Shown: piece by piece, positions 9,976 through 57,954 of the stretch
How the letters are laid out: every line of letters begins with the position of its first letter
Numbering within the stretch: the stretch's first letter is position 1
From: a virus
Taxonomy: Duplodnaviria > Caudoviricetes
Direction: 5' to 3' (one strand)
Length of the DNA stretch: 64,000 nt
IMG/VR virus record: IMGVR_UViG_3300037692_000137
Span: 170,229-234,228 of that record
Notes under the pieces: generated by a model
Databases searched by the model: none
What the model saw: the letters and a program-made list of their open reading frames with translations, nothing else
What the model was told of the DNA's origin: nothing
Program-made: the position numbers and the translations under genes

Positions 9976-10143
9976 TTATAAAATCTTTACTTCTGTTGCC
10001 TGAATACCCTTCTCTGTGTTCTTTAAAATAAAACTTACTGGTTGGCCTGCTTTAAGTGTTTTATAGCCATCCATATCAATACTTGTAAAGTGGATAAAAT
10101 ACTCTGCATCGGGGTTACCATCAATTAGTACAAAACCATATCC
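9976..10143 (-). CDS. csp: Cold-shock protein, exon 2
   Basis: GYGFV (RNP1) ... EYFIHFTSI (RNP2) ... KTLKAGQPVSF ... KGIQATEV; 55 aa plus stop. Confidence 0.9.
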   Translation of the reverse strand, partial: GYGFVLIDGNPDAEYFIHFTSIDMDGYKTLKAGQPVSFILKNTEKGIQATEVKIL

Positions 10144-10407
10144 CATATATATTCGAGTAAGATCGTTAAACTTACCCCGTCTATAATTTCTAGACAGCTG
10201 CATGTTTCCATACAGATTAGACTATATCACCAACCAATCTGGTTGCTACGCGCTTCCACTCACTTGAGTGTACTTCCTTTCGGAATAGTCGTTGCAGGTT
10301 CCTCATTAATAGAGGCTTCCCTCAGGATTGTCCTCGACTTGACGTTAGGATATTCCCTGAATTCACGTAGTTTTTCAAATCACATTACTGTAAAAAGCCG
10401 CCTATGG
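10144..10407 (-). ncRNA. Group I self-splicing intron (IA2-like, 264 nt, no homing endonuclease)
   Basis: P1 CCGU/GCGG with U.G at the 5' splice site; P2 with GUAA loop; P3 CUACGUG/CGCGUAG; P4 UCAGG/CCUGA; R CCUGCAACGACUA; S GAUAUAGUC (P7 GACUA/UAGUC); P7.1 UUCC-GAAA-GGAA; P7.2 CACUC/GAGUG; P8 CAACCA/UGGUUG; P9 UGUAUG-GAAA-CAUGCA; terminal G; removal restores an in-frame Csp. Confidence 0.93.
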
Positions 10408-10455
10408 ACGGTCGTTAGAAAACCATTTTACAACACCATTAATTCTTTCTTCCAT
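10408..10455 (-). CDS. csp: Cold-shock protein, exon 1 (MEERINGVVKWFSNDR)
   Basis: AAAGGAG SD; G-VVKWF Csp N-terminal motif; joins in frame to exon 2 (71 aa product). Confidence 0.9.
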
Positions 10456-10513
10456 AACTCAAACTCCTTTAGTTTTTTATTTATATTATGATGATTGTAA
10501 GTCACCACGTAGT

Positions 10514-10957
10514 TTAACTTAGAAACAATGCTTTCTCTGATTCTCTCCTATTTACTAAACCTTGAGATACTTTACCGTTAGCTTTTCGCCACTGCCAAAA
10601 ATTATTAGCCACACCAGTATAGTCTCCAACATTAAGCCTTCTCAGTACGGTTGATTTAGCAAAGTTAGCTAAACCTATGTTGTAAGCCAGGCTGGTTAAA
10701 GCGTTAAACTGATTCTGTGTAACTTTAATTTTTACCAGCTCATTTACACTTTCAGAAAAGTCTCCGGCAGTGAACGTGAGTAATTCAGTAGCGCGTTCTT
10801 TTGTTATAGGAGGGTCACTTAGGCGTACCTTTGTGCCGTCCTCATAATAAGTAGAACCAAAACCTATTGTAGGTATACCCGATGGGCATAAGTAAGGCTT
10901 AGAACTAAAACCCTCAAACCTCTTTATTAAGTCTACTCCAGCTATATCTATTTTCAT
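10514..10957 (-). CDS. Endolysin, GH24 lysozyme
   Basis: FEGFSSKPYLCPSGIPTIGFGST catalytic E-x8-C-x5-T; QNQFNALTSLAYNIG; GLVNRRESE. Confidence 0.92.
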   Translation of the reverse strand: MKIDIAGVDLIKRFEGFSSKPYLCPSGIPTIGFGSTYYEDGTKVRLSDPPITKERATELLTFTAGDFSESVNELVKIKVTQNQFNALTSLAYNIGLANFAKSTVLRRLNVGDYTGVANNFWQWRKANGKVSQGLVNRRESEKALFLS

Positions 10958-11003: not shown

Positions 11004-11993
11004 TTATAGCTGTGCAGCCATTAAACACCCGGCAGCGACACAGGTCATAGGTGAGGTGGCTCTTCTAATTTCGCTAATAGCCATAGGAAGTACTATACCA
11101 GACAAACGGTCTTCAAACATTTTAGTAAAGCCGTCAGCCAACGTCAGTCCGCCAGAAACAATGATTGGTACAGGCTCTCTAAAGATAGGTAGTTTCTTTT
11201 CTTGCTTTTTTAACTCATATGAAATATTTTGAAGCACGTAATTAATTACTGAAGAATAGTAAACTGATATAGCCTCAGAAATTTTATCTTTGGGGTTGTA
11301 CAAATCTATACCTGCTTCTTTTTCTAACTGAACTAATGATGGTGACATATCTAAAGCAGTGCCAACTGAATGGTCAATAAAATCTCCTGATCTTGTTACA
11401 GAAAATTCTACTAAGGGGTCACCTTGATGAATTACAGCTATGTTGCACATACCAGCGCCAAAAGACAGTGTAATACCAGTTAAAGAGTCGTCTAACAACT
11501 CACTTAAAGCTATAGCAAAGGCTTCATTTATTGGCTGCCCTATAAAACCTTTTTCACGCATGAACATGTTTAGTATCTCTGTGTGGTAAACGATATCAAA
11601 ATTACCGTCTACTGGTTTTGCTGGGACACTGTATACTAAAGGCTCGTCGCCGGAGCCTTTACCAATTAAGCTACTTAGCAACAATTTAAGCATTGGAAGG
11701 CTGCTTTTTTCTTTAGGGGATATTACCCCCTTAGACATAGGGCGGCTAGATACATCATTACGTTCCATTGCTATATGTAGAGCATCTTCTCCTACTACAA
11801 TGAAGTCATTACCTTCTTCTATAAAGTTGGAGCCTCTTTTTTCTAGTGACTTTTTGATGGCTTGTTTATTAACGTCACTCTTTGGAACTATTCTATAAAA
11901 AGCATCACGCTCCATCTTAAATACGGGATTACCCTCTTTATCTATAGAACCACACACCAACATATTAGTACCAACATCAACACCTTTTGACAT
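11004..11993 (-). CDS. Actin-like ATPase (MreB/ParM superfamily)
   Basis: Phosphate-1 GVDVGT, connect-1 INEAFA, phosphate-2 SFGAG, adenosine IIVSGG, terminal AAG. Confidence 0.8.
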   Translation of the reverse strand: MSKGVDVGTNMLVCGSIDKEGNPVFKMERDAFYRIVPKSDVNKQAIKKSLEKRGSNFIEEGNDFIVVGEDALHIAMERNDVSSRPMSKGVISPKEKSSLPMLKLLLSSLIGKGSGDEPLVYSVPAKPVDGNFDIVYHTEILNMFMREKGFIGQPINEAFAIALSELLDDSLTGITLSFGAGMCNIAVIHQGDPLVEFSVTRSGDFIDHSVGTALDMSPSLVQLEKEAGIDLYNPKDKISEAISVYYSSVINYVLQNISYELKKQEKKLPIFREPVPIIVSGGLTLADGFTKMFEDRLSGIVLPMAISEIRRATSPMTCVAAGCLMAAQL

Positions 11994-12982: not shown

Positions 12983-13570
12983 TTATTTTCTTTTGTACTC
13001 TACTTGATCAATTAAACCGTAGATTTTAGCTTCTTCTGAGGACATGAAGTAGTCACGATGCATATCTACTTTAACCTTTCCAACATCCTGTCCAGTCATT
13101 ACAGAATATTGAGAAGCCATCTTATCGTACAACTTCTTGGTGTGTTCCATGGTTTGGAATATATCCCCAGCTTTGCCTTGAACACCGGTGGATAACTCAT
13201 GTATCATAATCTCACAATTTGGTAAGGCATAACGCTTGCCCTTAGTACCGGCGGTTAAAATAAATGACCCCGCACTGGCTACCTGACCGTAGCCGATGGT
13301 TACTATATCAGGTTTAATGTAGTTCATGGTGTCGTAGATGGCATACATAGCTGTAATCTGCCCACCTGGGCTGTTGATATACATGTAAATGTCCGCCCCA
13401 GAATCGTCAGTTTCTAAAAATAGAAGTTGTGCTACAACCAAATCAGCCATGTCTTGGTTAAACTCACCAGAGATAAAGATGATTCTATCTTTTAGCATTC
13501 TTGAGAATGGGTCGTAAGCTCTTTCGGATTCTTCTCGGCTTGATTTTTCAAAAATGTAGGGTGTTCTCAT
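12983..13570 (-). CDS. clpP: ATP-dependent Clp protease proteolytic subunit
   Basis: YDPFSRMLKDRIIF, MYINSPGG, catalytic Ser (VASAG), His (MIHE) and Asp (RDYFMS). Confidence 0.95.
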   Translation of the reverse strand: MRTPYIFEKSSREESERAYDPFSRMLKDRIIFISGEFNQDMADLVVAQLLFLETDDSGADIYMYINSPGGQITAMYAIYDTMNYIKPDIVTIGYGQVASAGSFILTAGTKGKRYALPNCEIMIHELSTGVQGKAGDIFQTMEHTKKLYDKMASQYSVMTGQDVGKVKVDMHRDYFMSSEEAKIYGLIDQVEYKRK

Positions 13571-31719: not shown

Positions 31720-32007
31720 ATGAAGATAAACAACGCATTAAAAAGACTCATTGAAGAGGCCTTATCAGAGGCTAAGGCGGCCTCTACTGAGTACGTTGTA
31801 GTAAGATGCTTGTTCAGGCACGCTCTTTGTCGCAAAACACGCCTTTCTAAGGGCCAGGCTACATGGGTATGGCACAACATAGTATACGTTGACCCTAAGC
31901 ATGTATGTGGCAGGGAGCAGCGTGGTGAAATAAGTAGGTCTGACCAATGCGGGTTCAGATGTATCTCGCCTTTAGGCAACTGTCCTGACTTTAAACTTTC
32001 GCTCTAA
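31720..32007 (+). CDS. Early hypothetical protein (95 aa)
   Basis: AAGGAG SD. Confidence 0.55.
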   Translation: MKINNALKRLIEEALSEAKAASTEYVVVRCLFRHALCRKTRLSKGQATWVWHNIVYVDPKHVCGREQRGEISRSDQCGFRCISPLGNCPDFKLSL

Positions 32008-32019
32008 GGAGACATCACC

Positions 32020-32271
32020 ATGACTGCTAATACTGTCACTACTACCAATGAACATCCGCCGTTTGTAACCACTGGCAGCGGTGTTGGCCCATCATTTGTA
32101 ACCACCTATGAATGTATCATAGGATGGAAAGCTGTTTTGATTACTTGGGACGCTGAGTTTGGTTATATTCCAGATACTACTGCCTACTTCGCTCATCCAA
32201 CTGAAGACGTTGCTATCGAGGATGCTAAGCAGTGGGCGGAAGCCGAAGGAATTGAGTACCGTCCGCGCTAA
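32020..32271 (+). CDS. Early hypothetical protein (83 aa)
   Basis: AAGGAG SD. Confidence 0.6.
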   Translation: MTANTVTTTNEHPPFVTTGSGVGPSFVTTYECIIGWKAVLITWDAEFGYIPDTTAYFAHPTEDVAIEDAKQWAEAEGIEYRPR

Positions 32272-32310
32272 ATAGTTTATTTATCTCTAACCTTTTTCAG
32301 GAGAATTACC

Positions 32311-33072
32311 ATGAAATCTATTAAATCAATCGCAGTAGTAGCAATCATTGTTCTTTCACTCGTAGCCTGTAAACAAGAGGCTATGGTTAGTGCTCCTCAG
32401 CCCGCGGTAGTAGTTGGTAACGTATACACCACTGATGTTCTGCGTTATGAGGGCGACATTGTTAATAACATGCCCAATGGTAAGGGTGTTATCACCTTCA
32501 TCTGGGGTGATACTTATGCCGGAGATGTTGTCAACGCACTACCTAATGGCGGAGGTGTTATGCGTTATGTGGATGGCAGTATCTACCGCGGGCAGTGGAA
32601 GGACGGCCTGCGTGACGGGCATGGCAGGTTTGACTCATCTGATGGCAGCCGGTATAATGGTTCCTGGGTAGCAGGGAGTAAGCATGGCCAGGGAACACTT
32701 ACAGTGGATGGCCTTAGCCAGACGGGTACCTTTGAGAAAGACCAGCCCAAACGTGTTGTGGTTTTGGATACTAATACCTGTATCGAAGGTAACTGTCGCA
32801 CAGGCTATGGTATTAAACGCACAGCAGACGGTGTTTACTCTGGTGACTTCGAAAACGGTGACTTCCATGGACAAGGCACATTTAAGTATAGCAATGGTGA
32901 TACCTACAAGGGCAGCTTTCTCAAGGGACACATGTTTGGTGCTGGAAGGCTTACCAGCCCCAATAACCATTGTGTAACCATGGGTATCTGGGAAAGAGGT
33001 AAATGGGTTGAGGGTAACAGACGTTACGATGACGGTACACCTGAGTACATTCTTATGAGACACATTCTGTAA
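32311..33072 (+). CDS. MORN-repeat lipoprotein
   Basis: Signal peptide with lipobox LVA-C; repeated YxGxWxDGxRxGxG motifs. Confidence 0.85.
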   Translation: MKSIKSIAVVAIIVLSLVACKQEAMVSAPQPAVVVGNVYTTDVLRYEGDIVNNMPNGKGVITFIWGDTYAGDVVNALPNGGGVMRYVDGSIYRGQWKDGLRDGHGRFDSSDGSRYNGSWVAGSKHGQGTLTVDGLSQTGTFEKDQPKRVVVLDTNTCIEGNCRTGYGIKRTADGVYSGDFENGDFHGQGTFKYSNGDTYKGSFLKGHMFGAGRLTSPNNHCVTMGIWERGKWVEGNRRYDDGTPEYILMRHIL

Positions 33073-33083
33073 TTGTCGCTTCT

Positions 33084-33113
33084 CTCTGCTTATCTCCCGT
33101 TAGGTAAGCAGGG
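33084..33113 (+). other. Conserved hairpin, copy 1
   Basis: CTCTGCTTATC-8 nt-GGTAAGCAGGG just after a stop codon; related to 36398-36427. Confidence 0.6.
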
Positions 33114-33162
33114 GTTAGGAGACAAGAACAATAATAACCCTATCATGAAAAGGAGAAATATC

Positions 33163-33360
33163 ATGACCGCACAATTACGTTGGTTCGAGCGCATTCATCA
33201 GGCCGTTGTTGTTACACAAGATAAAGTGTGTAAATATCAAATTCACAATATGGAGGAGTTGGAAGTAGCCATTAAAGTATTAGAAAGTATGTTCAGTACT
33301 AGTGCTAAGCTGGTTAGTTCTAAGAAGCCAGATGTGTTCATATTTAACTTCAACAAATAA
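33163..33360 (+). CDS. Early hypothetical protein (65 aa; start re-called)
   Basis: AAGGAG SD. Confidence 0.55.
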   Translation: MTAQLRWFERIHQAVVVTQDKVCKYQIHNMEELEVAIKVLESMFSTSAKLVSSKKPDVFIFNFNK

Positions 33361-33434
33361 AAGGAGACACACGCCATGTCATTACGTTCAATTGTATGTA
33401 CGTGTCGCCGCACCCAGACAAGCCACACTTTCTT

Positions 33435-33502
33435 GTCGATTGGGCGACTATAAATAGGCATTAGGCCCAAAGCGCCCCTATCTATACCAGGTAGGGGGTT
33501 GC
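33435..33502 (+). ncRNA. Pistol ribozyme (predicted cleavage G33498/U33499)
   Basis: P1 GUCG/CGAC, loop AUUGGG pseudoknotting with CCCAA; UAUAAAUAG; P2 GCA/UGC; UUAGGCCCAAAGCG; P3 CCCCUAUCU/AGGUAGGGG; G-U cleavage dinucleotide. Confidence 0.88.
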
Positions 33503-33541
33503 TCTCTGTGTTAGTTTATTAACTTTATATAAGGAGATTGT

Positions 33542-33826
33542 ATGTCATATATCACACTTATTCATTGGACTATGCGCATATTTAAGAGTTCTTCTGTTCT
33601 TACTGTGCATGAAAAACAGATTATTTATGAAGTGCCTTTTTCCGGTTTATATGACGCTAAGTACATGCGTTATTTATTAATAAATAGGCTTATTCCAAAA
33701 GGAGAGTTAAGCGAATTAGATAAGTACATAAAAGAGGTACTTGTAGATGAATGGGATAAAGCATTAACAATAAGGGTGTGTGTTATTATACGCTATAACG
33801 CTGTCATAGGAGGTAGTCATGCCTAA
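33542..33826 (+). CDS. Early hypothetical protein (94 aa)
   Basis: AAGGAG SD. Confidence 0.55.
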   Translation: MSYITLIHWTMRIFKSSSVLTVHEKQIIYEVPFSGLYDAKYMRYLLINRLIPKGELSELDKYIKEVLVDEWDKALTIRVCVIIRYNAVIGGSHA

Positions 33827-34007
33827 ACAAAAAGGAGACACGTTGGTGCTTTATCAAAACATGTCAGACGGTCATTGGGTTAGGGGGTACTGCCTTTCGC
33901 CCGCATGTGCATGTAGTAACTACAGGAAAACACATTGTGACAATGGAACATGTCGTTTCTATAAAGAAGAGTTTATTTCTATTAAACAGAAAGGGGGTAG
34001 CTCATGA
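33819..34007 (+). CDS. Cys-rich early protein (62 aa)
   Basis: AGGAGG SD. Confidence 0.5.
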   Translation: MPKQKGDTLVLYQNMSDGHWVRGYCLSPACACSNYRKTHCDNGTCRFYKEEFISIKQKGGSS

Positions 34008-34172
34008 CTATAAGCACAGTAGCAAGGTGCTCTGTATGTAAACAATTAAAGAGATATTTCTATTTCTCTTTATCTGAGCAGGCTAAACTAAAACCAGCCG
34101 TGTGTAATGACTGTTTTGACTCAGTCAATGTACCTTTATTCACAATTATTGGCGTTGGGGGGGGGTAATATT

Positions 34173-34379
34173 ATGAGCACGTTCTTTATCACGATGGGTG
34201 TTGCTGCAGATGGGGGCTTTCAGCCGGTAAAAGCTGTAAAGCTGCCTAATAGCCGGATAGCTGTAGTAAACAGGAGCCCAATTACTACGCACTGTCCAGA
34301 GTTAGCAGAGGAGATAGCAGAGGCTTGGGCAAAAGAGGAAGGCTTAATCTACAACAAGAAGGAGAATGACTATGTTTAA
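34173..34379 (+). CDS. Early hypothetical protein (68 aa; start re-called)
   Basis: ATG preceded by a G9 tract that could serve as SD. Confidence 0.5.
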   Translation: MSTFFITMGVAADGGFQPVKAVKLPNSRIAVVNRSPITTHCPELAEEIAEAWAKEEGLIYNKKENDYV

Positions 34380-34602
34380 ACTCGACTCTCAGAACATACT
34401 TATTGGTGCTGTTATTGTAACAATTATCTGGTTCTTCAATTACATATTGGGTTCCATGCTGATTATTATAGCAGCAAGTGTTATCGGGTTGTTTATGTTT
34501 AACTGGCTTGGTAGTATATTCCGTAAGGATACAACAAAGCCCAAAGATAAGGCAAAAGACCCAACAGACTTGTCAGGGGCATTTAAGGAGACTAAACCAT
34601 GA
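34366..34602 (+). CDS. Small membrane protein (78 aa)
   Basis: Two hydrophobic segments; AAGGAG SD. Confidence 0.6.
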   Translation: MTMFKLDSQNILIGAVIVTIIWFFNYILGSMLIIIAASVIGLFMFNWLGSIFRKDTTKPKDKAKDPTDLSGAFKETKP

Positions 34603-34861
34603 AGATAGTAAAGGTAGTTTGCTCGTGGTGTATTGCTGAGGGGTTTCCTGTGACCCCTTTACATGAAATAGAGGTGCCTGATGATGTTGAAGGAGATTCA
34701 CACGGTATCTGCGAGTACCACGCCTCAGAGTTGGAAGAGATGCTGACGTTATACATGGAGTATGATGAGGAGTAAAGATATCAAACTTAATTACAAAGGA
34801 GACAGCAAAAATGTTCACATAACCTAAGGGAGGTGGTGCCTATGAGATAAGCGTTAGGGTT

Positions 34862-34940
34862 TAACGTGAAGGGCAAACCCGGAGCAATCCGGGGACGCAA
34901 AGCTATGGGCCCTCATTGTGAGGGCAGCCAGGTTACCAAA
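34862..34940 (+). ncRNA. c-di-GMP-I (GEMM-I) riboswitch
   Basis: AAG-GGCAAACC-CGGA-GCAA-UCCG-GGGACGCAAAGC-UAUGG-GCCCUCA/UGAGGGC-AGCCAG-GUUACC; GNRA loop; G at the position equivalent to G20. Confidence 0.9.
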
Positions 34941-34965
34941 CAAACCGAATTACAGGAGAATTACC

Positions 34966-35934
34966 ATGAAGAAATCAATCGTTATTTCCGCAATCGTTTC
35001 TCTTATTTCTATTATGTCTACCTCATCAGCACAGGGTGAACTCATTGATGGTCGTTTTACTGTTCTGGATACCACTACCAATTACGAATGGCAGAAACAC
35101 CCCTTCGTGTATACCAATTGGTATGACGGTAAGGACCAATGTGAAGACCTCGTTATGGATGGGCATGATGATTGGGTTATGCCTATGCCCGGCCATTTGA
35201 GAACAATCAAGGGCGTTATCCAGTACCTGGCATACAACTACATGTACTACCACACAATCAAAGAGTATTCAGCTACGGCGGACTACTCATACAACATTGA
35301 TACTGGTGTTGTTGGTGTTGTATCCAAATACAATCTTGGCAACGTTCGTTGTATGCGGGATGCTTCGGCTGATATGGCTGAGGTTATTACCAGCGTAACT
35401 ATCCAGAAAACCGGATATTACACGATGGCCACTTCCATTGCCAACGTAACTGGCATGGTATCAGCATTTGTTGATGGTGTTCTGGTGGCTTCTTACAATA
35501 CCGACTATATCAACACACCTGTTGGTATTGGCAATCTTACCGCCGGCCAGAATCTGGAAGTTACGGTCAATGGCGACAAGGCCGAGGGCATCAACGAAAT
35601 CGATTGGCAGAGTTGGGATATGACCTTTTCTGCCGGTGACATCGAAATCTATGTCGAAGACCCTCCGGTACCCAACAATTGTGTTGCCGCTGAGCCTACT
35701 GAAGAACTGCCCCCGCCGGTGATTGTTGAGGTGGGTATTACCAAGGCGCAAGTACTCAACAGTAAGAACAAGAGTACTTTAACGTTGGTATTGAACGTCC
35801 CTGAACAGATTACTATGGGAGACGGCCCCGCAGACTTCACGTTCTTCGTTTACAAGAATGGTTCAGATGTTGCGTATGTAGGTTCCACCGTAATGACACA
35901 CAAGGGGAATGGTAACATCATTTCCAATAAGTAG
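34966..35934 (+). CDS. Secreted DUF1566 (Lcl C-terminal-like) domain protein (322 aa; start re-called)
   Basis: CAGGAG SD; signal peptide; TVLDTTTNYEWQK...NWYDGKDQCEDL...GHDDWVMP...VRCMRD. Confidence 0.75.
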   Translation: MKKSIVISAIVSLISIMSTSSAQGELIDGRFTVLDTTTNYEWQKHPFVYTNWYDGKDQCEDLVMDGHDDWVMPMPGHLRTIKGVIQYLAYNYMYYHTIKEYSATADYSYNIDTGVVGVVSKYNLGNVRCMRDASADMAEVITSVTIQKTGYYTMATSIANVTGMVSAFVDGVLVASYNTDYINTPVGIGNLTAGQNLEVTVNGDKAEGINEIDWQSWDMTFSAGDIEIYVEDPPVPNNCVAAEPTEELPPPVIVEVGITKAQVLNSKNKSTLTLVLNVPEQITMGDGPADFTFFVYKNGSDVAYVGSTVMTHKGNGNIISNK

Positions 35935-35988
35935 TCTAACCAAAGGGGCGCCCTATCTGGGCGTCCCTACACCCAATGAGGTAATATT

Positions 35989-36390
35989 ATGACAGGGCAC
36001 TATAAACGTGGCATATACCACACAAATCAAGGCTTTGTTCACGTATATGCTCTCGAAAGTAAATGGTTGTATAAACGCGTATCCTTATCCTGTTTTACTG
36101 ATGTTGTAGAAGAAATGAATCAAGACACGTGGGATACTTGTGATGAAGTTAACGACTTGAACATATTAGCCAGATTTACACGCCCGGCTGATATTAGTGA
36201 CACATTCAGGATATGTGATGGAGCATCTACTTGCTTAAAGAACTGTTCAGCCAAGAAAGTACCTAATTCTGCTACGTGGATATCTACAGCAGTTTTAAAT
36301 AATCCTTCCGCCTGTATTCACTCAGACCACATAGATGGGGAAGAGCACGATTGTACGTACACAACTGTTTATGCCAAGTTAAAGCGTTAA
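35989..36390 (+). CDS. Early hypothetical protein (133 aa)
   Basis: GAGG SD; N-terminus resembles 38160..38405 (G.Y.G..G...V...E.KW.Y++V). Confidence 0.55.
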   Translation: MTGHYKRGIYHTNQGFVHVYALESKWLYKRVSLSCFTDVVEEMNQDTWDTCDEVNDLNILARFTRPADISDTFRICDGASTCLKNCSAKKVPNSATWISTAVLNNPSACIHSDHIDGEEHDCTYTTVYAKLKR

Positions 36391-36397
36391 CAATTCT

Positions 36398-36427
36398 TCC
36401 TGCTCATCAACTATTAGATGAGCGGGG
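36398..36427 (+). other. Conserved hairpin, copy 2 (possible pseudoknot to 36431-36437)
   Basis: TCCTGCTCATC-AACTATTA-GATGAGCGGGG; loop complementary to downstream AGTAGTT. Confidence 0.6.
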
Positions 36428-36639
36428 CTGAGTAGTTAAACCCGTACCACTTAATCTCTATACCAAGGAGGAGACCCATGAAACCAAAGTGTGGCTGTAC
36501 CGAATATGTGCTATGTGACAGATGTGCTATCATCCTGATGATGAAGATATTGTATTCATTTAGAAACGGTATTAAAAACGATACCACTACAACTACTAAT
36601 ACTGAACCTAAATAATTTATTCACTTGTGGAGGTGTACT

Positions 36640-36963
36640 ATGTTGGAAAAATGTAATGTTATCGAAAATAGTGTGTTGTGTGGTGAACCCGTACTTACAG
36701 ATGGTGCTTGTTATGACCACTGTGTTCCCTGTACTGTATGTGGTGAGCCTATTTCTAAACTTAAAGACAAACCTGTATGTGACTTGTGTGCGTACACCTC
36801 AGTACAGATGATTCCTGTCTATGTATGGCCGGATGATACGTGGATGTATGCGCATGAGTATAACGATGTTGAGGATGCCTGGCGGGGTGATGATTACACC
36901 ATCAAATACTTCTCTGGGGATTCTACGTATGAAGAAGTTGATGAGGCAGTATTGTCAAAGTAA
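36640..36963 (+). CDS. Cys-rich early protein (107 aa; start re-called)
   Basis: GGAGG SD. Confidence 0.6.
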   Translation: MLEKCNVIENSVLCGEPVLTDGACYDHCVPCTVCGEPISKLKDKPVCDLCAYTSVQMIPVYVWPDDTWMYAHEYNDVEDAWRGDDYTIKYFSGDSTYEEVDEAVLSK

Positions 36964-36983
36964 ACACTTGTGGAGGTGTGCTT

Positions 36984-37934
36984 ATGGATATTTATGAAAG
37001 AATAACTACCAGGCTTGATGGCTTCTTCAAAAAAGGTATGAAGAGGCATTCCTTTGTTGACAAACAACAACACCAGTTGGCCAGAATCAACGCCTCAAAG
37101 ATTTCAAGGGCGCTTAACTCACTGCCGATGTACTTTGTTAACATCTACGATGAATTGGTAAGTCCTACATTTAGGGAACACGCTGCTAAAATATCCGAAT
37201 ACGTAAAGAAGAATAACATTACAGTTGATGAAGTATATGCCGCGTTTAGGGCCCCTTACAATGATTTTGTTCTTTGCGATGGCGTGGACCTTTATATCGT
37301 AAATAGTCCCGCTAATCTTGTACTTAACATGTTGGTGTTTACACCATATCGTGATGAAGGGCGCCCTTATTTTGGTCTATATATTGAGGCCAATCTTAAT
37401 ACCGATATGTGGAAGGTAAAAGATATGGTGATGTTAACCCATAATGCGTTACTTCCTAAAAAGGCTGTTTCAAAAGTATCAGCTGCTGATATACGTAACA
37501 TTTGTAACAGTCTTGACATTGAGAAGCTAACAGATATGTTTACTCGTGTGGGCCGGGTCATTCATAATTTTGTAATTTGTTCTGTATTTAGTAAGTTTGA
37601 AGGCGAGTATACCGATATTAAGAAGGTTACTCCTGGTGTTAAGCCTATTAGTAGTAGGCCTAATGTATTCAGAGAAATAGATATTAACCTCAACCATACA
37701 AAGTTTATTATGAACCGCAAAGCACAACGTAAGGGGCATAAACTTCAGTATCAAAGTGCTATGCCCAGGATGTTGAAGTACATGCGGCACGAGCGGTATA
37801 GCCAGAATGGGACACTTCCTATACAGTACGACATTCAAGGTAAGCCATACTACTACACTGTTGAGGTTGATCCGTTTACCAGAGGAAAAGAACTTCCTCG
37901 GAAAGAAGACAGTATCAAATACAAAGTCGGTTAG
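36984..37934 (+). CDS. Hypothetical protein (316 aa)
   Basis: GGAGG SD; long ORF. Confidence 0.7.
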   Translation: MDIYERITTRLDGFFKKGMKRHSFVDKQQHQLARINASKISRALNSLPMYFVNIYDELVSPTFREHAAKISEYVKKNNITVDEVYAAFRAPYNDFVLCDGVDLYIVNSPANLVLNMLVFTPYRDEGRPYFGLYIEANLNTDMWKVKDMVMLTHNALLPKKAVSKVSAADIRNICNSLDIEKLTDMFTRVGRVIHNFVICSVFSKFEGEYTDIKKVTPGVKPISSRPNVFREIDINLNHTKFIMNRKAQRKGHKLQYQSAMPRMLKYMRHERYSQNGTLPIQYDIQGKPYYYTVEVDPFTRGKELPRKEDSIKYKVG

Positions 37935-37953
37935 CCCTTAAAGGAGGTGCGTT

Positions 37954-38118
37954 ATGAAGATGAAGTATACAGTAATAGTCGAGAGCTCTACGTATAGGCT
38001 GGAAATCGAAGTTAATAAACTGCTTGCCGAGGGGTGGGTACTCCAAGGAGGAGTATCTACGACTACTTTGGAGGGCGGGACTCATTGTGCTCAGGCACTC
38101 GTGCTGATTGAGAAGTAA
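37954..38118 (+). CDS. DUF1737-like small protein (54 aa)
   Basis: AAGGAGG SD; EVNKLLAEGWVLQGGV...QAL. Confidence 0.55.
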   Translation: MKMKYTVIVESSTYRLEIEVNKLLAEGWVLQGGVSTTTLEGGTHCAQALVLIEK

Positions 38119-38159
38119 TAAGTGGTGGCGTCAATTGGTTCTTTTAAAGGAGGTTAACC

Positions 38160-38405
38160 ATGAACGGACACTTTTTGACTGGTATGTATTCTGGACACCT
38201 GGGAAATATCCAGGTAGCAGTCGTTGAGGGTAAATGGATGTACAGAAAGGTTAAGACTAGGGCAGCTCCTGATAAATATCTTCCTATGACTGAGTACGTC
38301 TGGGAGCGCTGCTGGCCTATCACTGAAGTAAAGTTGTTAAGGAAGCTGTATAGGACAACGGATGTCCTCTACAAAGAGAAGAAGGCTCGTGAGGTTGGAG
38401 CATAA
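38160..38405 (+). CDS. Early hypothetical protein (81 aa)
   Basis: AAGGAGG SD. Confidence 0.6.
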   Translation: MNGHFLTGMYSGHLGNIQVAVVEGKWMYRKVKTRAAPDKYLPMTEYVWERCWPITEVKLLRKLYRTTDVLYKEKKAREVGA

Positions 38406-38417
38406 CCGTACCACAAT

Positions 38418-38455
38418 GGGGAAAGGGCACTAGCTGCCTTTTCCCCCGTTTTTTT
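38418..38455 (+). terminator. Intrinsic terminator
   Basis: GGGGAAAGGGCA/TGCCTTTTCCCC stem followed by T7. Confidence 0.85.
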
Positions 38456-38830
38456 GAGGGGTAGTGTTACGAGAGCCACACCTCTTCTATCTGCTTGAGG
38501 GTGTAGATAGTTAACCCAAAACTCTTATTAACCTTGTTCATATCAGGAGGTATGGACGTATGTCTGAAATGACAAAAGATATTTGGTATTAGGTTATGGG
38601 TAGGCTTTGCCCCCATATGGGGGCGCGCCATTGTGCGCACAAAAGACATGCCCGTAACAGCTCCTTAAATTCCACCGGTTTCCTATGGAGGCATTGCCCT
38701 TGTGGGAACCCCGAGACCTCGGAAGAAGCAACCAGGTTTGAAAGAGTCCATGGTATGGGCCGGCCCCTAATTGGTACTGCCTTGGACAGACCATTACATT
38801 CAACTCATTGGCATAAAGGAGGTGGTTCAA

Positions 38831-39205
38831 ATGCCATTCTACACTGCGCGTATTAATTATAGTGGTGCTGACAGATTAGACATCACTGCTGCTGGACAAC
38901 ACCCGATAGGTAAGATATTTGCTCCTACTTGGGAAATTGTTAAAATGTGGCAAAACGCAAAAAAGTTGACTGAAAAAACTGGAGACCCCCGTATATTAGC
39001 TAAGGCAGAAGATTATTATAGAGAACAATATAAAGAGCAGATGCGAGCCAGTATACACAACAACGGAGGTACGTGGATTCAAGTACTTTCACAACCAACA
39101 GTTACCTTTGTTTGCTACTGCCCATCAGGGACATTCTGCCATAGGTATCAACTTATGGAAATTCTAACAAAAGAGTTAGGCGCCATCTACATAGGCGAAC
39201 GCTAA
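38831..39205 (+). CDS. DUF488/YeaO-like protein (start re-called)
   Basis: AAGGAGG SD; FAPTW...Y..QY...TFVCYC....CHR. Confidence 0.65.
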   Translation: MPFYTARINYSGADRLDITAAGQHPIGKIFAPTWEIVKMWQNAKKLTEKTGDPRILAKAEDYYREQYKEQMRASIHNNGGTWIQVLSQPTVTFVCYCPSGTFCHRYQLMEILTKELGAIYIGER

Positions 39206-39387
39206 CTACTTGGCCGTTTGGCGACGCAAGCCATCCCCTTGCATCCGCTGGCCAAGTCTCTACAAATTCCATGTAATATATTCACGAAGTACTGCTGATG
39301 AAGACACAATTTTTCCCGTATTGTGGAGAGCCATTATGGTATCTACCACTTCAACTCAACTTAACCCAAGATTAAAGGAGAAACACC

Positions 39388-39600
39388 ATGCCGACATACA
39401 AAAGAAAATTGGGCAAAAGAGATTATAAAGAGTTGTTATTAACCCAGGAAGAGGCCAGTAGCGTGGACCTTATGGAGAGTATATACAACAACGTACCGAC
39501 ATGTGGCGGGCAGTGGCAACACGAGGAGGAAAGCACATGGCGGCCCTCATGCCGTAGGAAAAATGACAGGCAATTAAGTCTTGACAAACTTTTCAGGTAG
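39388..39600 (+). CDS. Hypothetical protein (70 aa)
   Basis: AAGGAG SD. Confidence 0.45.
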   Translation: MPTYKRKLGKRDYKELLLTQEEASSVDLMESIYNNVPTCGGQWQHEEESTWRPSCRRKNDRQLSLDKLFR

Positions 39601-39627
39601 TGGTAGTGGTAGTAGGTAGTAACACCG

Positions 39628-39652
39628 GTAGTGTTTTTTCCCGCTTCGCGGA
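39628..39652 (+). repeat. Dispersed 25-bp leader motif, copy 1 (GTAGTGTTTTTTCCCGCTTCGCGGA)
   Basis: Identical at 41639; one T shorter at 58401. Confidence 0.9.
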
Positions 39653-39702
39653 GGGGCTGGCGTATTGTCAGTCCCATAACCATACTCTTATAGGAGAACA
39701 AC

Positions 39703-41358
39703 ATGTTTACACTCAACGAAGATGCTGCTTTGGCTATGGAAAAAGCCGAGCAAGCACAACAAAAACGTGCGCAAGAAGAAGCCGAAGCTATTGCTGCGCA
39801 ACAGAGGAGAGCAGCTGCTGAGGCACAAGCAGCCGCCGAGGAGGCCAAGTGGGGCAAGAACCGGCTGATCATTTGTGCAGGTGAGTTAGCCATCAACGGG
39901 GTACAGCTGCTGCCGGCGAAACTGATAGGTGTTATCCAGGAAATCTGGAAAATGACCAACAAACCATTCTTGGGTAGCACATCCTTTACCAGGGATATCC
40001 TCACGGACGCTGTCTCAAACAGCAAACTTACCGGAGTCTATGACGCCACCACCAAGTCGGTTGTAATCAGCCTGCACCAACTTTGGGAAGACTGTACCAA
40101 ACCTGAATGCCTCCAACGTATGGGTATGGCAGAACAGGTGTGGGCAACCCTGCTTCAAGTGGTATCTCATGAGATTGTACACGCTGTTGAGCCAGAAGAG
40201 CGCGCCTGTGAAGTACGTGCCAAGGACATCATTACCACTTTGGCACAAAAGTTCGACCTCGAATGTCCGGCCATCGTCGACATGGGTTGGTTCGCCCCCA
40301 AACTGGATGAGTGGTATGCCAGCATCGAGAACAGTGATGAGGAACTCCACAAGCTCCAGAGGCAGATGCGTATGGAGGGTGTTCCTTATATCTTCGCCAG
40401 CGGGAAAAGGCTGAGCAGCATGAGACAGTGGTTCAGACTGTATCACGTTGAGAGGCGTGAAGAAACCGCATGGGATGAGGCAGTTAGTTCACTCATTCTT
40501 CAAGGCGCACAGCCCACACCTCCGGCCAATCCGCACGTAACCAACGCGGCAGCAACCACAATAGCAGAGGCAGCAATGACCATGGGAACCTATGAGATGC
40601 CTAAGATGCCTGGAGTGCCTGCGGCCGAAACAACAGCTGCCGGTCTTAATGACCTGAGAGCACAGATGGCTGCGCTGGGAGTTCCGTTCGGTGATGGCTG
40701 CTCGACGGTGACTGAGGAAGGTTACGATGCTTCCGCACAGATGCCCGGTGAGCTTAACTTCGGTGAAACACCCAACTATCAGCCGGCAGCACAGCAGGGA
40801 CAGCAGAAACAGTACAGTGGCCCTGCTCCCTGGGCAATGCCAAGCAGCATCCCACCTCAGCCCCTCGAAGCACCTATTGATGAGCTGAGAACGTACACTA
40901 GGGAAGTCATGATTCGTGCGTTCATGGCCATATTCGGCTACTGTGGATGGAATGGGCAGGGTGGGTACAGTGACCCTGACTTCGTGGCCAGAACCCCAAT
41001 CAATGTAACCGACATCCCACATGTCAACAACATCCTTCTGGGACTCGACACGGTGGTAGACAAGCGTAAAGTCTACGACCAGCCGACCCAAGGTATCATT
41101 CGAGGGTTTGTTGGCAAAGCAGCCAAGATGCCGCAGTATTCGTTACATATTAACCATGGGAGTAAGGTAGTTAGGTACTCCTTGATGCCGCAAAATCCGG
41201 AGCGGCCTGGACCTCGTGGGCAGGAAGCGAAAGCCGGAGCGATGTTCGGCTGGGTTACTATGCCGGGTGAAGGAGACAAGAGTGTCTACGTAGCCAAGAT
41301 ATCCTGCCCCTCTGGTGTAGTAAATCGTGCAAACATGGTCTTTGAAAAACTGGTGTAG
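39703..41358 (+). CDS. 551-aa protein with a HExxH metallopeptidase-like motif and a P/Q/A-rich linker
   Basis: AGGAG SD; VVSHEIVHA. Confidence 0.7.
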   Translation: MFTLNEDAALAMEKAEQAQQKRAQEEAEAIAAQQRRAAAEAQAAAEEAKWGKNRLIICAGELAINGVQLLPAKLIGVIQEIWKMTNKPFLGSTSFTRDILTDAVSNSKLTGVYDATTKSVVISLHQLWEDCTKPECLQRMGMAEQVWATLLQVVSHEIVHAVEPEERACEVRAKDIITTLAQKFDLECPAIVDMGWFAPKLDEWYASIENSDEELHKLQRQMRMEGVPYIFASGKRLSSMRQWFRLYHVERREETAWDEAVSSLILQGAQPTPPANPHVTNAAATTIAEAAMTMGTYEMPKMPGVPAAETTAAGLNDLRAQMAALGVPFGDGCSTVTEEGYDASAQMPGELNFGETPNYQPAAQQGQQKQYSGPAPWAMPSSIPPQPLEAPIDELRTYTREVMIRAFMAIFGYCGWNGQGGYSDPDFVARTPINVTDIPHVNNILLGLDTVVDKRKVYDQPTQGIIRGFVGKAAKMPQYSLHINHGSKVVRYSLMPQNPERPGPRGQEAKAGAMFGWVTMPGEGDKSVYVAKISCPSGVVNRANMVFEKLV

Positions 41359-41360
41359 CC

Positions 41361-41642
41361 ATGGCACCATACAGGGGTATGATTGAAGCCATTACCTCCA
41401 GTGAGTTTCGTATACAGCTCATTGGGGGTAACCCTGTAACATTCCCATATGATAACAAGTATGCGCATATGCGTAAATATGAAATCATCTGGGTATATAT
41501 CTATCACGGCGTAGTAACCGAGCTCCATACGTTAGAGTGTGTAGAACGTAAGAGCAAGGTGCGCCATAGACCACCACCAATGTCGCTGGAGATGTTGGAA
41601 GTGGAAGCAGGGGACTGTTTCGAAGAGGGTATTGTTTGGTAG
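41361..41642 (+). CDS. Hypothetical protein (93 aa)
   Basis: Coupled ORF. Confidence 0.5.
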   Translation: MAPYRGMIEAITSSEFRIQLIGGNPVTFPYDNKYAHMRKYEIIWVYIYHGVVTELHTLECVERKSKVRHRPPPMSLEMLEVEAGDCFEEGIVW

Positions 41643-41663
41643 TGTTTTTTCCCGCTTCGCGGA
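41639..41663 (+). repeat. Dispersed 25-bp leader motif, copy 2
   Basis: Exact match to 39628-39652. Confidence 0.9.
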
Positions 41664-41741
41664 TAGTGTAGTGGTAGTTAGTAGTGTGGAGGTGCATTTA
41701 GCACCAAACAATTAATAATCTTTTTATTATGAGGTATTACA

Positions 41742-42767
41742 ATGATCGGACGCAAAACAACTGACGTATTTGGCACAATCGTACCCGCAACCCTTGGTTG
41801 GAACGCTGGTCAGCCAGTGAAACACGCATTGATTGGCGGTGTTCTTACTCCGCCGTGTATGAAAAATGGAGTGCGGCAGAAAGAGCGCGTGACCTTTGAT
41901 GTACTGATCAACGACAATAGCGAGGCAGGTTATTCCATCACTCGTTGTGTAGCATGGAGTAGTGCTGAAGCTGAGTCTGGAAAAGGCTTCGCGGCGAAAC
42001 TGGCGCGGATGCTCGTACCTGGACGTTATATCTGTCTCTTCGGAGCTACCATTAGCTCAAACAAGGTGGCAGTCCTGAATAACGACGCTACCCCGGTGCT
42101 TCATAACGGCACGCAATATTTCCGTACATTTGATTCAGTGGTAGTACAGCCAGGTGGGAATATTATCATAAACCGTGATTCTCTGGAAACGCAGGCAGCT
42201 ATGGCGAGGCACTATAACAAGGCCAAAACCTTCGCCGGTAATTCCTGGGACTTCTTCCATCGTCCGCTGTCCGTCTACTGCGACCAGAATGGAGAAGTCC
42301 ATTTCATGTCCGACGCTACGAAAGCCGAGCTGGAAGCCACCAACAAATGTCGTAATAGCATTCCGTTGTTCACGGGTATGCAGACTTATGGGTTCTGTAC
42401 AGTACGCCTGCCTGAGGGTGCCCTGCCGGTATATCCGCGGAGCAATGAGTACGACGCATGGCTGGCACGGTATAAAGCTGCTGGTATTCTCGATGCTAAC
42501 GGTCTTCCGATGCTGACACCTGGACAGCAGAACGTTGCTACTCCGGCTGCTGGTCTTCAGATGCCAACCATGGGTGGGACTACCACCATGCCGCAGATGC
42601 CAGGTATGCCTGGTACGACCACCACACCGGCAAGTACGGCCAATGCAACGGCCTCAGCACTGGGAATCGATGCGAACATGCTGAAACTGCTTCAGGCTGC
42701 GCTGGCTGGTCAAGGGCATAGTACTGAGGCTAGTGCCGGCGGTGAAATGCCGACTGTTATGATTTAA
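41742..42767 (+). CDS. 341-aa protein, possibly OB-fold/SSB-like, with a low-complexity tail
   Basis: GAGG SD; RVTFDVLIND...ITRCVAW...AAKLARMLVPGRYICLFG resembles SSB strand order; M/P/G/T-rich C-terminus. Confidence 0.55.
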   Translation: MIGRKTTDVFGTIVPATLGWNAGQPVKHALIGGVLTPPCMKNGVRQKERVTFDVLINDNSEAGYSITRCVAWSSAEAESGKGFAAKLARMLVPGRYICLFGATISSNKVAVLNNDATPVLHNGTQYFRTFDSVVVQPGGNIIINRDSLETQAAMARHYNKAKTFAGNSWDFFHRPLSVYCDQNGEVHFMSDATKAELEATNKCRNSIPLFTGMQTYGFCTVRLPEGALPVYPRSNEYDAWLARYKAAGILDANGLPMLTPGQQNVATPAAGLQMPTMGGTTTMPQMPGMPGTTTTPASTANATASALGIDANMLKLLQAALAGQGHSTEASAGGEMPTVMI

Positions 42768-42814
42768 TAGTACATAAGTGTAGTACCGCAGTAAAACAGC
42801 TTTGATACGGCTGA

Positions 42815-42851
42815 GGGGGAGAGGCAATCGTGCCTCTCCCCCGTTTTTTTT
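42815..42851 (+). terminator. Intrinsic terminator
   Basis: GGGGGAGAGGCA/TGCCTCTCCCCC stem followed by T8. Confidence 0.9.
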
Positions 42852-43036
42852 CATACACATAAGGAGCTAACTTAATGCTGCTACTAATAGGTAGTAAAAT
42901 CCCGAATTTTTTTAACATAGGACATATACTATACAAGAAGTACTTTTACTGCGCTGGGGCGCTAATGGTAGTGTATGGAACGAGTAACACATTTCATACA
43001 CCGAAGTTAGTTTTACAGCCGGGGAAAGAAAGACGA

Positions 43037-43309
43037 CTATAGGACCGACTCTTCGTTCATACCTGCAGTTTTTTTCAATTCATTTTTACTGCGTGGCTTT
43101 CTTGCTAGCAGTTCATCTTTATATGCCATAGAATGTTCTACTATATTAGAAATACTTACTGTACCAAGTAGCTGATGTACAATAATGTCTACCACTCTAC
43201 CAACTCCAACTTTGTTGCCCGTTTCTTTTTCTATAAACTTACTTAACATATATAAATTAGCTAAGGTAGTGTCAAGTAACCTAAGTGTAATATCTTTTTT
43301 ATCTAACAT
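43037..43309 (-). CDS. Small ribbon-helix-helix-like DNA-binding protein (90 aa)
   Basis: AGGAG SD; ITLRL strand, helix DTTLANLYMLSKF, G, helix VGRVVDIIVHQLL; has its own promoter; the only convincing minus-strand gene in the right arm. Confidence 0.55.
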   Translation of the reverse strand: MLDKKDITLRLLDTTLANLYMLSKFIEKETGNKVGVGRVVDIIVHQLLGTVSISNIVEHSMAYKDELLARKPRSKNELKKTAGMNEESVL

Positions 43310-43326
43310 AATTCTTCTCCTGTCGT

Positions 43327-43454
43327 TAAGTTAATACATTAACTTATAGAGATAAGTTAATACATTAATTTATCTTTTATACTACACTACATTAATTTAT
43401 CTTTTATACTACACTACATTAATTTATCTTTTATACTATACTACATTAATTTAT
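43327..43454. repeat. Tandem 27-bp repeats (TACATTAATTTATCTTTTATACTACAC): three full and two partial units
   Basis: TACATTAA cores at 43335, 43361, 43388, 43415 and 43442 (spacing 26, 27, 27, 27). Confidence 0.93.
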
Positions 43455-43483
43455 AGTATACTATATCATACCCTAACTGTCAA
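43455..43483 (-). promoter_or_regulatory. Sigma70-type promoter reading into the 27-bp array and the RHH-like gene
   Basis: TTGACA-17 nt-TATACT on the minus strand. Confidence 0.8.
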
Positions 43484-43494
43484 GAGGTAATCAA

Positions 43495-43683
43495 ATGAAA
43501 AAAGAGAAAAAAGCGTCTGTCAAACTGAATGTATACCCTATTATAGGTGGTATTCTCATTATATTGTCCTGGTTAATGGTCTGGTACCTAGCCATAGCCA
43601 CTGGATTCATGGACTGGTCTATGAATGAGTACAACAAAATAGTCTCAACGCCCCCACAAGTGTCTGATTCTAAAACAAAATAG
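43495..43683 (+). CDS. Small membrane protein (62 aa)
   Basis: GAGG SD; one TM segment. Confidence 0.55.
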   Translation: MKKEKKASVKLNVYPIIGGILIILSWLMVWYLAIATGFMDWSMNEYNKIVSTPPQVSDSKTK

Positions 43684-43957
43684 AATAACTCACGTATTTA
43701 CCCGTTTCTTTTTCAACAAAATAGTAAAACAGACCTAAAAGGTCCCATATAAAGGAGCAATATAGTCTATTATGCTAGTATATTGTTTTATACTCTATAG
43801 GGGTATAAATGGCACTAAAAATATAAGTAGTTAATATGCTTATCTATTTTATTTTGGGCGGCCTATAAAAGCCTAAAAGGGTATCGTTTTTACCCCTATA
43901 AACTATAAAATATTCGGCAAACAGCCCTACAACCCAATAAAACATATGAGGAGGTAA

Positions 43958-44158
43958 ATGACCCCTGTAATATATAAAATACTATACAATAGTATACTAC
44001 TATCTACCATGGTAAGCATTATCACAGGTATATGGTGTGTATACGATATGGATTCATTAACCAGGATTCTATATAAAGAGGTATCTAAACTATTCTTCGG
44101 CATAACCATAATTTCTGGCACGGCCCTAGGATTGATAAAGCTTTTAACTTCCACATAA
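43958..44158 (+). CDS. Small membrane protein (66 aa)
   Basis: GAGGAGG SD; two hydrophobic segments. Confidence 0.55.
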   Translation: MTPVIYKILYNSILLSTMVSIITGIWCVYDMDSLTRILYKEVSKLFFGITIISGTALGLIKLLTST

Positions 44159-57069: not shown

Positions 57070-57354
57070 ATGAAACATGTATTAGTAGTACACAACAATT
57101 GTACAGATGACCACTGCCCAATCTGTGATGGTGGTCTATGCGTGTGTTCAGTGTGTGGTGGCGCGGATTCCTCCCTTACGACAGAGTGTTCTGGTAAAAT
57201 AATTCCGGCATGGTTAGAAACTGCCGTTAGTAATTCATATGTGGACTTTATTGGTGGCAGGTGGCTTATTACAGAGCGTGGTAAGCAGGCTGCTAACAAC
57301 TGCGCTGCTGGAGCATATAATCTGAACACGTTGGTAGCAATTCAAAGAATATAA
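57070..57354 (+). CDS. Cys-rich small protein (94 aa)
   Basis: GAGG SD; CPICDGGLCVCSVCGG...LTTECSG. Confidence 0.6.
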   Translation: MKHVLVVHNNCTDDHCPICDGGLCVCSVCGGADSSLTTECSGKIIPAWLETAVSNSYVDFIGGRWLITERGKQAANNCAAGAYNLNTLVAIQRI

Positions 57355-57366
57355 GGAGGATACCAT

Positions 57367-57576
57367 TTGCCGACATACACTGTCAATAACATTGAATATA
57401 GGCTAATGTCTATTAATGATGTGGGTTCCAAATCTGTATGGGAATGGGGAACAAAAGCAAAAGCGCTTGATTTGCAAAAAGTTGCCCAAGCTATGTTCCC
57501 TAGAGCCACATACAGCATTCAAAGTAGACCCAAAAAAGATTTAGCGGATAAAAGAGCGAGGTCTAAGCAAAGGTGA
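57367..57576 (+). CDS. Hypothetical protein (69 aa, TTG start)
   Basis: AGGAGG SD. Confidence 0.5.
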   Translation: MPTYTVNNIEYRLMSINDVGSKSVWEWGTKAKALDLQKVAQAMFPRATYSIQSRPKKDLADKRARSKQR

Positions 57577-57580
57577 GTCC

Positions 57581-57766: not shown

Positions 57767-57954
57767 TGCTTTTTAAAGACTATGTAAATACCAAAGAGTA
57801 CGAAGAGGTGGCCGCCAGAGTAAAGCAAGCGGCTATTGAACTGGACAACGCTACCAAACATATTGTTGAGACCTGTTCAGATATAGATGAAGAGGATATT
57901 TTTGTCAGTCAAGAGGGTAACATCGAGTTGATACAATGGTAGTGGAGGACCGTT

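Follow-up and report, generated by a model that had tools for sequence, protein, structure and literature searches.

Several phage group I introns that contain no open reading frame (ORF) home with the help of free-standing endonucleases, as is known for the psbA intron of cyanophage S-PM2 with F-CphI, the nrdA intron of Aeromonas phage Aeh1 with MobE and the nrdB intron of T4 with mobE (PMC3984707; PMC2790892; PMC6083498). Insertion into the most conserved coding stretch of a gene is a known habit of elements driven by homing endonucleases (PMC3984707). Here we describe a group I intron that splits a cold-shock protein gene (csp) in a phage from sediment or groundwater metagenomes. The DNA analyzed, referred to below as the window, is a stretch of 64,000 nucleotides (nt) comprising bases 170229-234228 of IMG/VR record IMGVR_UViG_3300037692_000137, which is about 234 kb long and has a CheckV completeness of 89%. 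The element at window positions 10407 to 10144 on the minus strand is probably an ORF-less, mobile, selfish intron of subgroup IA that is functional and homes between related phages, and not a device specific to csp.

The csp intron resembles those of S-PM2, Aeh1 and T4 nrdB in several respects. It is small, lacks an ORF and lies within coding sequence that is highly conserved; in two related contigs (L064 and L197), and at a second intron-bearing locus of its own genome, a glycosyltransferase gene, the interrupted gene has a free-standing endonuclease gene directly beside it; the flanking exon appears to have been co-converted, and the presence of the intron varies among close relatives. It is unlike them in that the host gene encodes a cold-shock protein and does not belong to DNA metabolism or photosynthesis, in that the endonucleases, all HNH proteins, belong to different families (CapR-repeat plus HNH, or zinc-ribbon plus HNH) with only putative cleavage sites, and in that csp is entered at three alternative points within 17 nt. 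With the subgroup IA2 introns of phages (T4 td, nrdB and nrdD, Staphylococcus Twort/K-like phages and the DNA polymerase gene of T4-like phages), it shares recognition by the Rfam model RF00028, the P7.1/P7.2 insert and an in-frame stop soon after the 5' splice site, the csp intron itself being placed to the level of subgroup IA only. In a blastn search, it has 70-79% nucleotide identity over a core of about 200 nt to introns of Staphylococcus, Escherichia, Vibrio and Pseudoalteromonas phages. Unlike the IA2 phage introns, it has a different host gene, contains no ORF and lies 16 codons into a gene of 71 codons. A third point of comparison is provided by intron-rich jumbo phages, for example the Jug gut phages, in which a genome carries about 18.5 group I introns (PMC12880540), and PhiPA3, whose RNA-polymerase intron encodes an HNH endonuclease that attacks PhiKZ (PMC11620839). 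Like these, the phage described here has a large genome in which more than one group I intron occurs together with many stand-alone HNH genes, and its introns and endonucleases differ between close relatives; unlike them, it belongs to a groundwater or sediment lineage, and only two introns of the family were found in its genome.

As an intron host gene, csp appears to be new. We found no report in the literature of a cold-shock gene split by a group I intron, although a database of 42,459 introns (PMC11835236) may list one, and the main text of the Jug phage paper makes no mention of csp as a host gene (PMC12880540). Among 50,697 records of cultured phages searched by blastn, the intron core alone was matched and no relative of the locus was found; in a tblastn search of cultured phages with the spliced protein, all csp genes were below 60% identity (the best at most 48.5%) and none was obviously split.

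The two exons (Table 1) join in frame, position 10408 to 10143, to encode a protein of 71 amino acids (aa). The spliced protein matches positions 2-64 of the 66 in the Pfam cold-shock domain profile CSD (PF00313), with 69 bits. Without exon 1, which completes the domain, the match from exon 2 shrinks to positions 13-64 and 49 bits. Both nucleic acid-binding motifs, RNP1 (RGYGFV) and RNP2 (YFIHF), are present in this single cold-shock domain, as in bacterial proteins of the CspA family, from which it differs in being phage encoded and interrupted by an intron. The intron lies between the codons for Arg16 and Gly17, where the stretch coding for RNP1 begins (R|GYGFV, the bar marking the splice site). 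The predicted ligated RNA reads ...GACCGU|GGAUAUGG..., with exon ends ...AACGACCGU|GGAUAUGGU..., and intronless homologs in related phage contigs run unbroken through the predicted junction as KWFSNDRGYGFV (e.g., L005) or KWFNNDRGYGFV. In the unspliced frame, translation stops at CCA UAG, two codons into the intron, and Csp can therefore be made only after splicing. The exon 2 sequences of the window and of the related locus L003, which carries an intron at another csp site, differ at 11 codons synonymously and at 1 non-synonymously. The substitution pattern indicates that the exons of intron-bearing csp genes are under strong purifying selection and that the protein is still needed.

Stop-to-start ORF finding at this locus yields a 75-aa ORF (MQLSRNYRRGKFNDLTRIYMGYGFV...) at window positions 9976-10203 on the minus strand, which begins inside the intron, and automatic annotation will call this truncated ORF in place of the true split csp. 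We considered translation of exon 2 from an internal ATG, at 10203 or at 10146 (giving MGYGFV...), and rejected it: neither ATG has a ribosome-binding site, and the product would be without the beta-1 strand carrying the KWF motif, which counts against an internal start.

The intron is matched by the full length of the Rfam group I model RF00028 (model positions 1-253) with 86 bits and an E value of 1.7e-20, the gathering score being 50. The Rfam alignment places a U.G pair directly after GACCGU, where CCGU|C pairs with GGCGG, and also shows a GNRA-capped P2, P3 to P8 and a P9 capped by GAAA. Between P7 and the 3' strand of P3 lies a 31-nt insert that forms P7.1 and P7.2 and marks the intron, on this alignment, as a member of subgroup IA. 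The omega G is the G at 10144, and no other G keeps the reading frame. The intron has stops in the sense frames and holds no endonuclease ORF. A candidate P10 can be drawn between CCAUA and UAUGG at positions +4 to +8 of exon 2, starting 3 nt inside the exon; the intron found at another csp site in related phages, site A (Table 1), has a pairing of comparable offset (CAUUA with UAAUG, +6 to +10), both pairings having been read by eye. By sequence and predicted structure, the intron RNA carries every feature needed for guanosine-initiated self-splicing, and it probably does self-splice, also in vivo; the strong purifying selection on the exons implies the latter, though it does not prove it. 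The first-pass annotation of this DNA had described a group I intron splitting csp within RNP1, exons joining to a complete 71-aa Csp, a P1 with its U.G pair, the core helices, P7.1/P7.2, a GNRA-capped P9, a terminal G, a stop at CCA UAG that makes Csp dependent on splicing, the lack of an endonuclease and no known precedent in a csp gene; all of this was borne out by the Rfam and Pfam models, by direct reading of the sequence and, for the precedent, by the literature. A simple scan had flagged the P1 hairpin and its U run (CUUUUU, 10398-10411, minus strand) as terminator-like. This reading was rejected as improbable: the hairpin is just 5 pairs long, and its counterpart in sister introns is without the U run.

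Table 1. Features of the split csp locus in the window, and csp insertion sites across related phages.
Feature	Window position	Strand	Description
csp exon 1	10408..10455	-	16 codons, MEERINGVVKWFSNDR; last base is the U of the U.G splice-site pair
csp exon 2	9976..10143	-	55 codons and stop; GYGFV...(RNP1)...YFIHF (RNP2)...KIL
ORF-less group I intron	10144..10407	-	264 nt; subgroup IA layout, P1-P9 with P7.1/P7.2, then P9.1/P9.2; terminal G at 10144
Stretch matched by Rfam group I model	10198..10417	-	P1 to P9, catalytic core
P1 hairpin CCGU|CCAUAGGCGG	10398..10411	-	5' splice site and internal guide GGCGG; stop CCA UAG in loop (Rfam alignment)
P7.1 (UUCC-GAAA-GGAA) and P7.2 (CACUC-AAGU-GAGUG)	10257..10285	-	Between P7 and P3'; 31-nt insert (Rfam alignment)
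3' extension past Rfam model	10144..10197	-	P9.1 (GUCUA...UAGAC), P9.2 (GUAAG...CUUAC), AAUAUAUAUG, terminal G
Tract 100% identical in metagenome contig L064	10136..10452	-	317 nt, covering the whole intron, most of exon 1 and the initial 8 nt of exon 2; flanks differ by about 6-7%
Ribosome-binding site AAAGGAG	10464..10470	-	8 nt upstream of csp ATG (10455-10453); read from sequence
Phage lysozyme	10514..10957	-	Upstream neighbor of csp; Pfam Phage_lysozyme, 142 bits
Insertion site A			Inside Phe codon, TGGT|T; L141-L143, L149 (330 nt), L197 (268 nt)
Insertion site B			CGU|GGA; window and L064 only
Insertion site C			After Gly codon, GGT|TAY, 3 nt past site B; L175 (254 nt), L206

The fold is also supported by comparison within the intron family. 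A family covariance model (R1), built from three family introns, scores the window intron at 307 bits and gave 8 matches, 7 of them distinct, in the sequences searched. Among these 7 members, standard pairs fill 93.9% of the pair cells; in controls with the 3' partners shifted by 1-3 columns, the share falls to 40-44%. Of the 68 pairs, 49 have compensatory changes that affect both sides. The alignment used for these counts was fitted to the family model and so favors the structure, but 29 compensatory pairs were also obtained when three sequences were analyzed independently with MAFFT/RNAalifold. The P7.1/P7.2 helices (helices 9 and 10) are 100% paired, with 8 of 9 pairs changed on both sides, and in helix 13, which lies in the 3' extension, the same holds for 8 of 10 pairs. 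The RNAalifold structure behind R1 mis-draws the P1/P2 region, and P1 and P2 were therefore taken from the Rfam alignment. RF00028 did not match the csp introns of loci L149, L175 and L197, either at the gathering score or at an E value of 0.01 or below; the family model scores the same three introns at 108-149 bits. Surveys of environmental phages that use RF00028 alone may thus miss members of this intron family.

The nearest relative of the csp intron is found in the same genome. A second family intron of 264 nt, 79-81% identical to the csp intron, lies at G000:C1:71791-72054 (positions 1450-1713 of L001, minus strand) and splits a GT4-type glycosyltransferase gene (Pfam) after codon 16, MERKTKILCYMDTPTC|ATGFGTV. 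Other csp introns are all more distant from the csp intron of the window. The glycosyltransferase intron has its own in-frame stop two codons in (AAA UAA), and its guide is altered to fit its own exon (CUGU|A with UGCAG). A gene for a 229-aa CapR-repeat/HNH endonuclease (L001 1771-2460, minus strand) ends 10 nt before the start of the glycosyltransferase gene. The heptamer GGTTTTG, within Gly-Phe codons, occurs at +7 to +13 of the 3' exon in both targets (window 10131-10137 and L001 1437-1443, both minus strand). It may be a target common to both loci, of an endonuclease or of the guide, or a coincidence of Gly-Phe coding, and it is a weak hint of the route to csp. Elsewhere in the genome, tblastn gave further matches to HNH/CapR-repeat endonucleases at about C1 50266-50745, 101069-101605, 113009-113889 and 148033-148611, and the match at C1 113009-113326 is 55% identical to the nuclease end of an HNH protein linked to csp in L064.

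The first-pass annotation had also proposed that csp homologs of related phages be surveyed for presence and absence of the intron. Our survey was seeded on exon 2 only, which avoids bias against split genes, and introns were called by an in-frame check together with the family model; it returned 80 phage csp loci, 73 of which are intronless. The introns occupy the three sites listed in Table 1, all within 17 nt of the sequence coding KWF-xxx-R-GYGF, the most conserved part of csp. The closest relatives of the window (L002-L004, L061 and L078, with an exon 2 protein 98% identical) carry their intron at site A, 14 nt upstream of site B (TGGT|TT in KWF); it is 263 nt long, is 64% identical to the window intron, scores 88 bits with Rfam and has a guide that fits its own exon (GGU|UC with GAGCC). 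In-frame stops just inside the intron are found in the other csp introns too. The site-C intron of L206 is about 1.57 kb long and contains two ORFs, for an HNH protein (181 aa, Pfam 37.7 bits) and a LAGLIDADG_2 protein (209 aa, 85 bits). Twice, sister phages carry related introns at different sites, the window versus L003 and L175 versus L197. On the loci compared, the RNP1-coding stretch of csp is a three-site intron hotspot in this phage group. The contig of L206 and L229, IMGVR_UViG_3300033064_003457, has its csp, split after the Gly codon of RNP1, at about 72.1-73.7 kb and holds two further family matches side by side at 57198-57404 and 57556-57783.

Recent movement of the site-B intron can be read from L064, a metagenome contig of 2,439 nt. 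Between the window and L064, there are 0 differences over 317 nt and 63 over the following 935 nt, and the upstream leaders are unrelated. At a uniform divergence of about 6.7%, zero differences over 317 nt would have a probability near 1e-9 to 1e-10 by hand arithmetic. Structural constraint cannot explain the identical tract, since the two introns within one genome, those of csp and the glycosyltransferase gene, differ by 20%. The L064 lysozyme has 96% identity to that of L003 versus 69% to that of the window, and its gene downstream of csp has 97% versus 94%. Because the flanks of L064 are nearer to L003, either the site-B intron has moved into an L003-like backbone or the exchange went the other way, in both cases with co-conversion over short tracts, and the comparison shows a recent lateral transfer that co-converted flanking exon sequence. 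L064 has a 292-aa ORF between its lysozyme and csp genes, ending 22 nt before the csp ATG, which matches several HNH-endonuclease families of PHROG with E values down to 2.5e-10. An identical intron in a backbone diverged by 6-7%, beside an HNH gene, has the signature of recent homing with co-conversion.

Other csp loci also have an HNH gene as a neighbor. L197 carries one (HNH_2, 37.9 bits) directly upstream of a csp with a site-A intron, and in L006-L008 an intronless csp is directly preceded by a gene for a 346-aa CapR-repeat/HNH protein, which is 49% identical to the HNH protein beside the glycosyltransferase intron of the window's genome. The alleles also occur together: two groundwater runs from different studies hold contigs of both, the site-A allele at depths of about 600-700 and about 100 and the site-B allele with the HNH gene at 28 and 6, or about 25:1 in one community. 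A further sediment run contains short contigs identical to the window arrangement without the HNH gene. The intronless csp joint was seen in none of the DNA contigs of the runs examined, which showed both intron alleles.

We propose the following scenario for the emergence of the split csp gene. The most likely source of the csp intron is the family with a member in the glycosyltransferase gene of this phage, and the intron would have invaded one of three alternative insertion points in the most conserved csp coding sequence. It would then spread among co-infecting relatives by DNA homing. Some relatives, such as L064 and L197, encode a free-standing HNH endonuclease just upstream of csp; this enzyme would cleave csp alleles lacking the intron, and repair would copy the intron, and often the endonuclease gene too, from the donor, a process of collaborative or trans homing. 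In the window's phage, without an endonuclease gene at csp, the intron would be a passenger, and the likely benefit to the phage would be that the intron breaks the endonuclease target and shields the csp allele from cleavage.

Several observations weigh against this scenario or leave gaps in it. Unlike L064, the window's genome has no endonuclease gene between lysozyme and csp or otherwise adjoining csp, and homing from it would need a helper. The 292-aa ORF of L064 scores 18.6 bits with Pfam HNH, below the cut-off of 21.4. The homing route and the endonuclease target at csp are putative, as are the cleavage sites of all these endonucleases. The identical 317-nt tract could stem from ordinary homologous recombination of co-infecting phages and not from homing. 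Among the DNA contigs, the very closest relatives showed no allele without an intron, so that a presence/absence polymorphism at the exact site is deduced from more distant homologs. Finally, the locus sequence is present in 21 sequencing runs, all DNA-type, with no RNA run among them.

The first-pass annotation had suggested a different role for the intron, as a domesticated switch whose splicing is sensitive to temperature or to an RNA chaperone, with Csp feeding back on its own intron. On this reading, Csp production would be gated by cold. Csp synthesis does strictly need splicing, given the CCA UAG stop, the csp intron is without an ORF, and the csp exons are under purifying selection in intron-bearing alleles; furthermore, proteins of the CspA type act as RNA chaperones, and chaperones help group I introns to fold (PMC3017892). 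However, nothing ties the intron specifically to csp: its closest relative is in a glycosyltransferase gene, close relatives of the phage use a different intron at a different csp site, and about nine in ten related csp genes are intronless, so that there is no stable lineage-wide association. The early in-frame stop recurs in the glycosyltransferase intron and the other csp introns and is not specific to csp, and the 100% identity of the intron across diverged backbones, where it travels with an HNH gene, argues for recent spread and not for long retention. We consider the domesticated switch improbable, and the suggestion was set aside in view of this sporadic and recent association with csp, shared with another gene. 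An incidental effect of temperature or Csp on splicing may still be compatible with a mobile intron. It is also formally conceivable, if rather improbable, that the invasion of csp at three sites was not neutral, the intron being tolerated or favored because the Csp chaperone helps its own intron to splice, coupling output to temperature or Csp level. If this were true, chaperone-dependent intron folding would give autocatalytic or cold-gated expression of Csp.

Another explanation is that the intron is kept mainly as a weapon or shield in competition between phages, with the site A, B and C alleles as rival states that displace one another. An intron in the RNP1-coding target would make the csp allele immune to the free-standing HNH endonucleases of co-infecting relatives. 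Three alternative sites within 17 nt and the two pairs of sister phages with related introns at different sites would fit such rivalry, as would L064, an L003-like backbone in which the site-B intron and HNH gene replace the site-A intron, and the presence of both alleles, at about 25:1, in a single groundwater community; a precedent is known from jumbo phages, which interfere with one another by means of an endonuclease (PMC11620839). Nevertheless, this explanation largely overlaps with that of a selfish mobile intron and differs only in who benefits, and the window's phage, without an endonuclease at csp, would be at most shielded and not armed. As an account of why the intron is kept, we regard it as unlikely. 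Least probable is a decayed remnant, an intron that no longer splices in a csp that has become a pseudogene in this phage. The intron did lose, or never had, an endonuclease ORF, and the runs that hold the sequence are all DNA-type, but the full-length match to the group I model with every core helix intact, the 100% conservation of the intron in a second backbone, the intact ORF across both exons with a good ribosome-binding site, and the excess of synonymous over non-synonymous changes in exon 2 (11:1), unexpected of a pseudogene, all stand against it. A functional selfish intron that moves between related phages is thus the reading that we favor.

Related phage contigs share the neighborhood of csp, which consists of an actin-like Volactin protein, a lysozyme or peptidase, csp and a zinc-ribbon protein of 227-257 aa. 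In the window, the Volactin-family actin-like protein is encoded at 11004-11993 (minus strand; Pfam 217 bits), upstream of the lysozyme-csp block, as is a ClpP-like protease ORF at 12983-13570 (minus strand); the order actin-lysozyme-csp is kept in related phage contigs. Farther away, two other structured RNAs were detected on the plus strand. A c-di-GMP-I-GGC variant riboswitch aptamer at 34863-34941 (66 bits, cut-off 59) directly precedes a 338-aa ORF (34918-35934) and extends into its beginning; the N terminus encoded by this ORF is hydrophobic and resembles a signal sequence. A riboswitch for a second messenger is unusual in a phage genome. About 1.4 kb upstream of it, between small ORFs, is a Pistol self-cleaving ribozyme at 33434-33503 (65 bits, cut-off 34.5). 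From about 32000 to 44000, the G+C content rises from 0.32-0.39 to 0.43-0.46, and the GC skew changes sign near 32 kb, a shift that coincides with the switch from minus- to plus-strand genes and with the Pistol/riboswitch region.

The split csp gene adds a small RNA-chaperone gene to the phage genes known to have been invaded by group I introns. One locus presents a natural series of states: intronless csp, intronless csp with an upstream HNH gene, the ORF-less intron alone, the ORF-less intron with an upstream HNH gene, and an intron containing HNH and LAGLIDADG genes. The series takes in three insertion points within 17 nt, and two of its rival alleles co-occur in one groundwater community.

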